This document shows positions 1,138 to 4,423 of a stretch of DNA of 64,000 nt, piece after piece. Source of the stretch: a virus (lineage: Duplodnaviria > Heunggongvirae > Uroviricota > Caudoviricetes). The DNA is taken from IMG/VR virus record IMGVR_UViG_2724679293_000007, positions 32,001-96,000 of that record, one strand, 5' to 3'. Position 1 is the first letter of the stretch. Each line of letters begins with the position of its first letter. The notes under the pieces were generated by a model. It ran no database searches and was not told the origin of the DNA. It was given only the letters and a program-made list of their open reading frames with translations. Both the position numbers and the translations under genes were made by a program.

Positions 1138-1446
1138 CTAATATACAAACTGATCCACATGATCACCCAAGTCATCGTCGTCGTCCTCATCGCCACCATC
1201 TACTGCTGGCCAATCAACAAACCAGCCAGCGTAAAGATGCAGCGTTCGGAGAACATCACTTGCGGGAGCATCAAGGGTGTTAACGAATCCCATATAGCTA
1301 TTGGGATTTGCCCCAGCTATGGCTTCAGCGATCATGTCCTCGGTAATGTCACCGGAGATAATGCTTAAACGCCCGGAAACTTCTTCGTTATCATCAAATT
1401 CGATAATGGCATCTCCACCTAATGGCGCTGCGATTTTAATCTGCAT
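1138..1446 (-). CDS. Hypothetical acidic protein (102 aa), last gene of the dar operon
   Basis: ORF overlaps the upstream gene stop by 11 bp (translational coupling); poly-Asp C-terminus. Confidence 0.4.
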   Translation of the reverse strand: MQIKIAAPLGGDAIIEFDDNEEVSGRLSIISGDITEDMIAEAIAGANPNSYMGFVNTLDAPASDVLRTLHLYAGWFVDWPAVDGGDEDDDDDLGDHVDQFVY

Positions 1447-4423
1447 TATTTAGCTCCTTTGCCACACCTAATAACAGTTCCAGCAATCCGTCACCATTCA
1501 TCAGTGATGCGGCAGCGGCCTCTTTGTCATGATACAACTGAAGAGCCATAGAGAATACTTCCGTTGCTGACGTTTTGGAAATAGTCGGTGATTTCTGCCG
1601 AATTTTCTCGGTGTTACTTACTGAGGCTGGTGGGTATACCTTCGCCATATAAATATTACTCAATCGAGATCTGAAGCACCATTCAGGCTTGCCACGCCCA
1701 CCGATATTAACGAAAGATGGTTTATCCCCTTCAACATTGGCCTTCAGGAATGACCGGGCTTTCTCTAACAAACCAGGGTTACTGTACTCAAGATGATGAC
1801 CCAGCTCGTGCCACAGTGCACTTGCAGTTTCATCGTTCAAATTGACAGCAACAACACCATTAAGATTTGCATATGCCCTTCCCTGGTGGTGAACCACCTT
1901 TGATAAGGTCGAAATTTTACCGCCGGTCAGGCGATAAATATCAGCAAGTTCCTTGCGCAGGTCTATCCCACCATTCTGTCCAGCGCGGGCTTCTTCCACT
2001 TCTTCCGTGATAAAAGAGTCGGCCCACTCAAGAGCTTTTTCTTCAGATACGGATGAGTTTGCGATCGCACTGTTCATGGCAGATAACACTTTCTCGTGGA
2101 CCGAACCCATACTTCGCTGATTCATTTGCCAGCGTGTCTGCGGGTTATATGAGAATCGCTTAAGTAGTTGGTCAAGCTGCTCAAGTTCTTCTTCACTGAC
2201 ATACTTTTTAGCCTCACCAATAATGCCAGGGAGAATATTGCCGTTAGGATTAAACGCTCGCGAAAGGAAGAGTTTCAGCGCCCCCATGCCCTCCGATGCT
2301 TCAATATCACCAATAACCCGGTTAACAATGGCCGCACTCTTCGGATTAGCATCCGCCAACGCTCTGGCTACGATTTGCAGGGACGATACGACCTCACGCT
2401 GCATATCCGTCCTGATCTCATCAATAAACTCTGGCGTTATGCCGTGCTCTTTAAGGATATCCCTGCCTTCCGCCGTTACCCCATCGATATCACCGACATG
2501 TTTATTAACCCGACTTTGCAATGCCTTAAATGCCTTCAGAATTCCACGGGCATCATCCGCTTTACTAACGGCCTTCCTGAATGCTGGCAAGAAGTCAGAG
2601 TTAACCTCATTTTGTTGATCGGCCCACTGAATGGAGGCTTCTTTCATCTCGTCCAGAGTCAGATCACCCAACGCGGTATGGTCTGTGAATATGAGCGACA
2701 ACCTCTGAACCATTTCTGCCAATGGTGATGCCGAATGCGCCGCGCTAAGGAATGCTTTCACCCTGGTTGGGCGAATGGAAAACCAGTCAATAGCTGGTGG
2801 CATATCTCCGTTTTTTATCGCCTGCGCTATCTCGTCAAAGCCATCGCGCCCAAGGGAGGATGCGTGATTTAACAAGCCGCGAAGTAACGAATTGCTGATA
2901 CCGAATAATCGGCACCATTTTTTCACGTCGGCAACAGGCATTCGAACAAAATGCGCAAGCACTTGAACAAGCTGTTCATCCTGGGGATCTGTACGGGAAA
3001 GCAGCCTGATCAGATGAATAATGTCTTTGATGCCGGATGCCCGATGTAATAGCAAGCTGGTATATGGAGCAACACCGTTGTAACTACCGCCAGAAGCTGA
3101 CTCGAAAAGACCGCCAGATATCCCTTGCATACCTTCGTTTTCCAGTTCCTGAGATACTTGGCGAAGGATATCCTGTAACGACACATCGCCGCCGCCAAAC
3201 ATATCCCCGAGCGCCTGGCCCTGGTGCTGTAACTCATCATTGATACGTTGCGCCATCAACTTAAAGGCGGTGGCCATACGCTTCGCGCTACGGTTATTCG
3301 CGACGATGAACAACGCGAGTGCTTTCACTTCCGGGGCCGTTTCGCTGAACATATCCCCCTGAGCAATAACATCGGTAATATGCTGGCCTGACTCCTTCGA
3401 TTGCCTTACCAGGTCTACCGCATCTTTCAATGCCGCCAGCGCCTTTTTATCGAGGCTATCCGCTGTCTCAATGCCATCAACAATAGTTGTCACAGCCTGC
3501 TTGTGCGCTTCTCCTGATAAAGCCTGCATCTGGACAAAATCATTGGCTGCCGCATTAAGCGCCGTCAGAACATTACGCATATCCGGATCAGGTTCTTCTG
3601 CAACCATCCTTACCAGGCGCGCATCCTTATATGCCTTGGCAAAGATCGCGTTTTGTATACGGTCAACAAGTTGCCGCGTTGGTCGCCCATCTTCCGTTAC
3701 AAGGCCAGCAGCCTGTGTGGCACCAACTTGCGTCATGAATCCGCGAATAAACGCGTCATTACTGCGGCTAAGCAGATCTCCGCTTTCTGACGGATTAAAC
3801 AGCGCCATCATCGCCGGTGTTATGCTGTCGGCATCAACAAAAGCCTTTTCACTGGCTGCCATTTCCTGAAGATCAGAAATATTTGAGTCCTTGGCAAACT
3901 GAACGCGGTCAACCTTAGTTAACCGGCGGCGCACCAGTACAGGAGCCGTCATTGATTCAACCTTTTCAGGTCGTATGCCGAATTCGGTCGCATGTTCAAT
4001 CAGGTACTCACGATACCGATCCGCATTGCCGTCCTGATAGGCTTTAATGATTCCCATGGTCCGTCCATTACCTGACTCAACGGCATTGTCCTCACCAATT
4101 ATCGGCGCGCCATGGCTGGATAAACCGGAATCGGTAAGCTGAGCAGGCCGCAAATCTTTGGATATCTGGTTAACCTGAAGAAGGCTGGATGCGCGGGTCC
4201 GGTCGCGCGGCTGAAGTTCCTGGGGATAGTCAGGATTAATTTTCCCATCCAGAGTATTGGATACCAAAAGAGCTGAGGCATCGACGATATCAAACGCTGT
4301 TTTTACCTCGTCTCCCTTCGCTGTCACCACATACGAAACCCGCCCATAATCGGGCAGGTTCTTAAGCAGCTCGATCAGCGTTTCTATGCTGGTGGCAATT
4401 ACCACCTGATCGCTTAAGCTCAT
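1436..4423 (-). CDS. Large antirestriction/internal-head-type protein (995 aa), positional equivalent of P1 DdrB; contains an HExxH motif
   Basis: Size and position downstream of the 639-aa and 121-aa genes match the P1 darA operon order (from memory). WHELGHHLEYS motif at 1796..1810. Confidence 0.55.
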   Translation of the reverse strand: MSLSDQVVIATSIETLIELLKNLPDYGRVSYVVTAKGDEVKTAFDIVDASALLVSNTLDGKINPDYPQELQPRDRTRASSLLQVNQISKDLRPAQLTDSGLSSHGAPIIGEDNAVESGNGRTMGIIKAYQDGNADRYREYLIEHATEFGIRPEKVESMTAPVLVRRRLTKVDRVQFAKDSNISDLQEMAASEKAFVDADSITPAMMALFNPSESGDLLSRSNDAFIRGFMTQVGATQAAGLVTEDGRPTRQLVDRIQNAIFAKAYKDARLVRMVAEEPDPDMRNVLTALNAAANDFVQMQALSGEAHKQAVTTIVDGIETADSLDKKALAALKDAVDLVRQSKESGQHITDVIAQGDMFSETAPEVKALALFIVANNRSAKRMATAFKLMAQRINDELQHQGQALGDMFGGGDVSLQDILRQVSQELENEGMQGISGGLFESASGGSYNGVAPYTSLLLHRASGIKDIIHLIRLLSRTDPQDEQLVQVLAHFVRMPVADVKKWCRLFGISNSLLRGLLNHASSLGRDGFDEIAQAIKNGDMPPAIDWFSIRPTRVKAFLSAAHSASPLAEMVQRLSLIFTDHTALGDLTLDEMKEASIQWADQQNEVNSDFLPAFRKAVSKADDARGILKAFKALQSRVNKHVGDIDGVTAEGRDILKEHGITPEFIDEIRTDMQREVVSSLQIVARALADANPKSAAIVNRVIGDIEASEGMGALKLFLSRAFNPNGNILPGIIGEAKKYVSEEELEQLDQLLKRFSYNPQTRWQMNQRSMGSVHEKVLSAMNSAIANSSVSEEKALEWADSFITEEVEEARAGQNGGIDLRKELADIYRLTGGKISTLSKVVHHQGRAYANLNGVVAVNLNDETASALWHELGHHLEYSNPGLLEKARSFLKANVEGDKPSFVNIGGRGKPEWCFRSRLSNIYMAKVYPPASVSNTEKIRQKSPTISKTSATEVFSMALQLYHDKEAAAASLMNGDGLLELLLGVAKELNNAD

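Follow-up and report, generated by a model that had tools for sequence, protein, structure and literature searches.

The DNA analysed here, a window of 64,000 nucleotides (nt; positions 32,001 to 96,000 of the virus record IMGVR_UViG_2724679293_000007), comes from a P1-like phage (Punavirus) and carries on its reverse strand ddrB, which encodes a virion protein of the Dar operon with an HExxH motif, HELGH, in its C-terminal domain. The ddrB open reading frame (ORF) spans 2,988 nt and, at the DNA level, shares 98.0-98.6% identity with the ddrB genes of P1, P7 and related plasmid prophages; the encoded protein departs from P1 DdrB at 14 of 995 residues, likewise at 14 of 995 from P7 Prt, and none of the conserved catalytic positions described below is substituted between the three. 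PHROG 2299 covers the protein over its full length (the P1 counterpart is annotated P1_gp022), and the gene is surrounded by the canonical darA operon, with lydA, lydB, hdf, darA and ddrA upstream. An earlier note on this DNA had spoken of a protein "at the DdrB position"; given the 98% nucleotide identity to P1 and P7, the 14 amino-acid (aa) differences and these neighbours, the product is DdrB itself. The HELGH motif proves invariant across homologous domains and falls on the active-site helix of a confidently predicted zincin-like fold, and a full-length AlphaFold2 (AF2) model, computed with 45 orthologues as input (mean per-residue confidence score, pLDDT, 80.9), places that fold at the end of a protein with the following layout:

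1436..4423, reverse strand: ddrB coding sequence, 995 aa plus stop, Dar-operon virion protein (ORF list, DNA identity to P1 and P7, P1_gp022, PHROG 2299)
3131..4423, reverse strand: conserved N-terminal module, aa 1-431, a ParB-like domain with a helical extension; the best-conserved part among the 45 orthologues
3923..4318, reverse strand: DdrB-type ParB/Srx domain, aa 36-167
3077..3130, reverse strand: predicted disordered linker and module junction, aa 432-449; the longest segment with pLDDT<50 in the full-length AF2 model
2108..3076, reverse strand: variable all-helical middle region, aa 450-772, poorly conserved
1439..2107, reverse strand: zincin-like metallopeptidase (MPTase) domain, aa ~773-995

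The prediction of a zinc protease in DdrB is already known. The RefSeq/GenBank record of P1, whose annotation dates from 2004, describes ddrB as "unknown protein function; possible metallopeptidase"; in P7 the gene is named prt, "putative protease", and in phage JL22 its product is labelled "putative metallopeptidase". Iyer et al., 2017 (PMC5512222) named the N-terminal domain of P1 DdrB DdrB-ParB and identified a "C-terminal MPTase domain", for which they proposed autoproteolysis and, as an alternative, a host-directed effector activity. Our literature search found no paper testing the HExxH motif or the activity of DdrB; the metallopeptidase stands as a prediction, in annotation and in Iyer et al., 2017.

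The DdrB translation holds ...ETASALWHELGHHLEYSNPG..., in which HELGH occupies aa 872-876 (nt 1810..1796) and is the sole HExxH. The coordinates 1796..1810 first given for the longer string WHELGHHLEYS are exact for HELGH, while the full string extends over nt 1781..1813; the numbering H872/E873/H876 is correct on translation of 1436..4423. Taken alone the motif is not significant, because 2.6% of 20,000 shuffles of DdrB also carry at least one HExxH, the expectation being 0.026 for a 995-residue protein containing 20 His and 65 Glu. The window's six-frame ORFs of 100 aa or more, 29,209 aa together, hold three HExxH; the second, HETSH, lies in a ParA-like partition ATPase ORF (39186..40397, reverse strand) and is taken as chance, and the third, HEVAH, is found within darA in an antisense ORF of 101 aa that is itself spurious. 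What lifts HELGH beyond chance is its invariance in 144 of 144 homologous domains at roughly 25-45% identity. These derive from an exhaustive HMMER search in which aa 760-995 served as query against 1.84 billion cluster representatives and which recovered 377 relatives at E<=1e-3; conservation was scored on 144 domain segments, no two of them identical and most sharing 25-45% identity with DdrB. H872, E873 and H876 are each present in all 144, and further positions of the domain are conserved with them, several in alignment with anthrax lethal factor (LF):

1796..1810, reverse strand: HELGH (H872, E873, H876), two predicted Zn ligands and general base, from sequence, conservation, the helix at 866-881 and the LF alignment
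1877..1879, reverse strand: R849, near-invariant Arg in the β-sheet before the active-site helix (R in 143/144)
1787..1789, reverse strand: E879 (HExxHxxE), probable second-shell residue with a predicted role (142 E and 2 D of 144; aligned with LF D693)
1682..1684, reverse strand: E914, near-invariant Glu in the β-hairpin insert (142/144)
1634..1651, reverse strand: Y925-x2-K928-x-Y930 motif, with Y930 as candidate catalytic or oxyanion Tyr (Y925 144/144, K928 129/144, Y930 142/144)
1559..1564, reverse strand: T954-E955, where E955, opening a "glutamate helix", is the candidate for third Zn ligand (E955 in 137/137 aligned)

Spacing is fixed as well, at 11 residues from E914 to Y925 in 143/144 and 5 from Y925 to Y930 in 144/144, and this pattern together with the conservation excludes chance as the source of the motif. 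The conserved residues of the catalytic domain are also invariant among the 45 full-length DdrB orthologues. E914 is without a counterpart in the alignment with LF.

An AF2 model of aa 760-995, built from a 40-sequence domain alignment, is of high confidence (mean pLDDT 93.7, pTM 0.90). On its N-terminal side it has a helical bundle (761-832) and then a small β-sheet (842-860); a long helix (866-881) bears HELGH and E879 and is followed by a second helix (883-896), a β-rich insert containing E914, Y925, K928 and Y930 and, directly after T954-E955, helix 956-962 and two terminal helices. The predicted arrangement is that of a zincin core, with a β-sheet ahead of the active-site helix, a further packing helix and the family-conserved HExxH on an α-helix. 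The helical placement first proposed for the motif is borne out in both models (aa 866-881 of the domain model and aa 867-881 of the full-length one), and in the latter a strand, 851-853, adjoins R849. Judging from the model, it is very probable that aa ~773-995 form a true zincin domain of the gluzincin fold, and the zincin-like peptidase reading of the earlier note gains support from the family-wide conservation and the confident domain model. The structural relatives of the domain scored as follows:

Pro-Pro endopeptidase PPEP-3: 7.7
Pro-Pro endopeptidase PPEP-2: 7.4
LF-like domain of Certhrax: 6.6
MtfA: 6.5
anthrax LF: 6.2-6.5
M32 carboxypeptidases: 5.2-6.5
CapP: 5.1
IrrE/PprI: 4.3
thermolysin: 4.1
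ArdC: 4.0
Wss1 / Spartan: 3.4-3.6

The SprT-like function that had been suggested is disfavoured by this ranking, since the domain resembles LF, the PPEPs and MtfA, and Wss1 and Spartan score lower. When a profile of the DdrB domain was aligned by hhalign with the LF catalytic domain (the LF sequence used was confirmed identical to PDB LF chains), the alignment was weak (P=0.004, probability 8%) but co-linear, pairing HELGH with LF HEFGH(686-690), E879 with D693 and T954-E955 with A734-E735. In LF, E735 is the third zinc ligand and Y728 the catalytic Tyr. In both AF2 models E955 caps the N-terminus of helix 956-962, and the distance from Y930 to the Glu is 5-6 residues in most homologues versus 7 in LF (Y728 to E735), the P1 clade, including P1 DdrB, having an insert of ~19 residues between Y930 and E955. 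Because of its invariance, its position at a helix start and the LF-like Tyr-to-Glu spacing, E955 ranks first among the candidates for the third ligand, as Y930 does for the catalytic Tyr, and by analogy with LF and the PPEPs we infer these roles for them. The outcome that would have spoken against a peptidase, a non-catalytic setting without a third metal ligand, is thus not what the models predict, E955 being a candidate for that ligand through a weak alignment.

In sequence databases the domain is poorly covered. Pfam recognises in DdrB only the DdrB-ParB domain at the N-terminus (aa 36-167, PF18763, E=1.7e-39), and the PHROG matches in the C-terminal part, 20397 and 33618, are of "unknown function". 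A single-sequence search of the PDB with DdrB gave no match and a profile search of the PDB gave only sub-threshold matches around HExxH (BoNT/Wo, ADAM8, FtsH); a word-indexed protein search with the domain or its profile returned few matches, mainly fragments. No Pfam-A or NCBIfam model matches the MPTase clade with its 377 or more cluster representatives, which probably explains the many "hypothetical protein" labels among its members.

The domain also occurs in other combinations. The N-terminal module joined to the MPTase was found in 69 of the 119 relatives inspected, and the architectures of MPTase relatives include ParB+MPTase, InPase (inorganic pyrophosphatase)+2xParB+MPTase and MuF+2xMPTase, as well as combinations with PBECR2; such mosaic domain combinations are the "polyvalent protein" pattern. 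In a Vibrio clade of ~614-aa proteins the N-terminal module stops at about residue 438 and is followed by an InPase domain (PF18823); in enterobacterial relatives it is the helical region and the MPTase that come next. The linker at aa 432-449 is a true module junction, at which C-terminal halves are exchanged among relatives. The dar locus of one Vibrio harveyi P1-like plasmid (L007), which we inspected, holds no MPTase and no HExxH. At 1336..5868 (forward strand) the same plasmid encodes a DarA_N-containing protein of 1,510 aa, versus 639 aa for P1 DarA, which suggests that it has a much larger DarA-type polyvalent protein.

How might such a site act? By analogy with LF and the PPEPs, H872, H876 and E955 would hold Zn2+, E873 would be the general base and activate water, Y930 (or Y925) would stabilise the transition state as LF Y728 does, and E879 would be a second-shell residue. 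We consider the domain probably competent in catalysis, and on balance, with a moderate degree of confidence, we favour the reading that HELGH is the catalytic centre of the MPTase domain already described and that this domain processes DdrB or Dar cargo. Following Iyer et al., 2017, the endopeptidase, acting inside the head or soon after ejection, would cut DdrB and/or Dar cargo packaged with it and would release the ParB-like module, aa 1-431. We are more tentative about the substrate, giving somewhat less than even credence to the proposition that the domain acts mainly on DdrB or Dar cargo and not on a host protein. DdrB has been described as processed to a 76-kDa head protein (Iyer et al., PMC5512222, citing Lobocka 2004 and Walker & Walker 1981), and from computed masses a form of this size implies a cut near aa ~700 or ~295. 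It has been detected in virions by 39 peptides with 59.5% coverage (PMC9024508) and enters the head after Hdf/DarA and DdrA (PMC12810830). The mass-spectrometric coverage corresponds to ~592 residues, more than the 449 that reach the end of the linker, so that virion DdrB must extend past the linker, although packaging of the peptidase domain is not thereby settled. DdrB 1-440, corresponding to the N-terminal module region (3101..4423, reverse strand), has a computed mass of 47.8 kDa; a literature search for an older description of a DarA-dependent internal head protein of ~47.5 kDa, a size that this fragment would fit, gave unrelated papers only, and this lead was dropped.

Several observations weigh against processing of DdrB or Dar cargo by this domain, or against parts of that proposal: (i), neither Pfam (searched with the full length and with the C-terminal 236 and 436 aa) nor NCBIfam matched a peptidase in DdrB, and Foldseek found no match in the PDB; (ii), the third ligand could instead be E914 or E879, which are near-invariant acids too; (iii), a cut in the linker (432-449) would yield fragments of ~47-49 and 60-62 kDa, a mismatch with 76 kDa; (iv), Pro, the T4-gp21-like prohead protease of P1, has the capsid protein (cut after E120) and DarA as reported substrates, and could equally explain the processing of DdrB; (v), the domain's nearest relatives in structure are endopeptidases that act in trans and with high specificity; (vi), Vibrio P1-like elements retain the N-terminal module without any MPTase, and the C-terminal slot holds another enzyme in these relatives.

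The last three points lend themselves to a different reading, in which DdrB is an active protease ejected as an effector, whose task after injection would be the cleavage of some host protein, such as a subunit of the type I restriction enzymes EcoKI/EcoBI or another defence factor, while Pro performs any processing of DdrB. As a packaged protein, DdrB is one of those required for protection against EcoB and EcoK (PMC12810830, PMC9024508); LF and the PPEPs, its closest structural relatives, are trans-acting, substrate-specific endopeptidases; the InPase in the same C-terminal position of the Vibrio proteins suggests an exchangeable effector slot; processing of the capsid protein and DarA is reportedly the work of Pro; and the possibility was raised by Iyer et al. 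(PMC5512222). However, the role listed for DdrB, which "aids DarB addition to capsid" (PMC9024508, Table 1), suffices for the EcoB/EcoK phenotype, and no host target is known. Moreover, Dar acts only in cis, on DNA that shares its virion (PMC12707154), which is hard to square with a protease that diffuses and destroys enzymes of the host, and argues against one acting freely on the host. We regard this reading as unlikely. A bolder form of it, which we find quite improbable, is that the C-terminal half of DdrB-family proteins is an exchangeable "effector slot" at a flexible junction (aa 432-449 in P1), occupied in enterobacterial P1-like phages by a substrate-specific, LF/PPEP-like gluzincin that enters with the ejected DNA and, beyond trimming DdrB, cleaves a particular host defence protein, and in Vibrio P1-like elements by an inorganic-pyrophosphatase-like enzyme; if so, P1 would carry an unrecognised protease-based anti-defence activity.

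A catalytically dead or purely structural zincin fold, acting as an adaptor in the packaging or assembly of DarB, would be in keeping with the entry of DarB into the capsid as the only DdrB function attributed in the literature we consulted (PMC9024508), with the reported non-essentiality of ddrB, and with the virion RNA polymerase (vRNAP) of phage N4, whose MPTase-containing region is needed for encapsidation and which is packaged unprocessed (PMC5512222). But the canonical H, E, H, downstream Glu and Tyr positions are all kept across 137-144 homologues at ~25-45% identity. Pseudoenzymes usually lose catalytic residues, and this complete retention makes a dead scaffold very unlikely. Finally, a chance HELGH or a non-peptidase HExxH fold such as that of the alpha-ketoglutarate-HExxH hydroxylases, which could draw on the frequency of the motif among shuffles, the two further chance-level HExxH in the window, the absence of a matching peptidase Pfam model and a recent N4 paper reporting HExxH in non-peptidase enzymes too, has a near-negligible probability and is effectively refuted by homologue conservation, the AF2 domain model and the structural relatives.

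Among named systems, the polyvalent-protein MPTases are the group to which DdrB belongs: P1 DdrB is among the examples given when they were described (PMC5512222), it is delivered with the DNA, and relatives of its domain form mosaics with ParB, InPase, MuF and PBECR2. Anthrax LF and PPEP-1/2/3 (MEROPS M34) are alike in predicted structure, but similarity in sequence falls short of significance and we do not file DdrB as a member of that family, the ATLF model (PF07737) matching 1 of 40 family members (E=0.03) and not DdrB. In comparison with LF and the PPEPs, DdrB alone has an N-terminal helical bundle, an extra conserved β-hairpin with E914 and, separating Y930 from E955, ~19 inserted aa; it differs too in being a phage head protein, whereas LF is a secreted toxin. 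ArdC of plasmid R388 is likewise an antirestriction protein that enters with the DNA and has a C-terminal zincin domain, and Iyer et al. (PMC5512222) grouped it with DdrB as an MPTase-bearing polyvalent protein; DdrB nevertheless does not have the ArdC arrangement of an N-terminal ArdC-N ssDNA-binding domain followed by the metalloprotease. The DNA-protein-crosslink proteases SprT, Wss1 and Spartan share with the DdrB domain a zincin core and an HExxH on a helix, but DdrB shows neither their close third His ligand nor the SprT fold as best structural match. The C1 subdomain of N4 vRNAP is a putative zincin-type HExxH domain in a giant ejected virion protein, packaged unprocessed, unlike what is proposed for DdrB (Iyer et al., PMC5512222); N4 vRNAP was absent from the fold-search matches of the DdrB domain.

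The Dar system is a classic case of virion-packaged antirestriction, and in the literature we consulted no Dar enzymatic domain has demonstrated chemistry. An intact, predicted zinc-protease site of the LF/PPEP kind points to the residues to mutate, H872, E873, H876, Y930 and E955, and poses the question whether the domain would cut DdrB itself, other Dar cargo or a defence protein of the host. This adds little by way of discovery; the residue-level map and the module swap may nonetheless aid experimenters, and a practical by-product is the recognition that a clade of at least 377 cluster representatives falls outside Pfam and NCBIfam models.

Elsewhere in the window, the major capsid gene (36253..37980, reverse strand) contains the published Pro site between E120 and S121, as ...KAMLE/SVAAE, a single site and thus too little to define a cleavage motif for DdrB; its ORF as listed begins 7 codons upstream of where the published length of 568 aa would place the start. 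Around ddrB itself, iddB, a 132-aa antisense ORF (3471..3869), is nested in the gene as in the P1 annotation, and the start of hxr overlaps the ddrB stop at 1436..1446 (ATGCAGATTAA), an overlap that suggests translational coupling.

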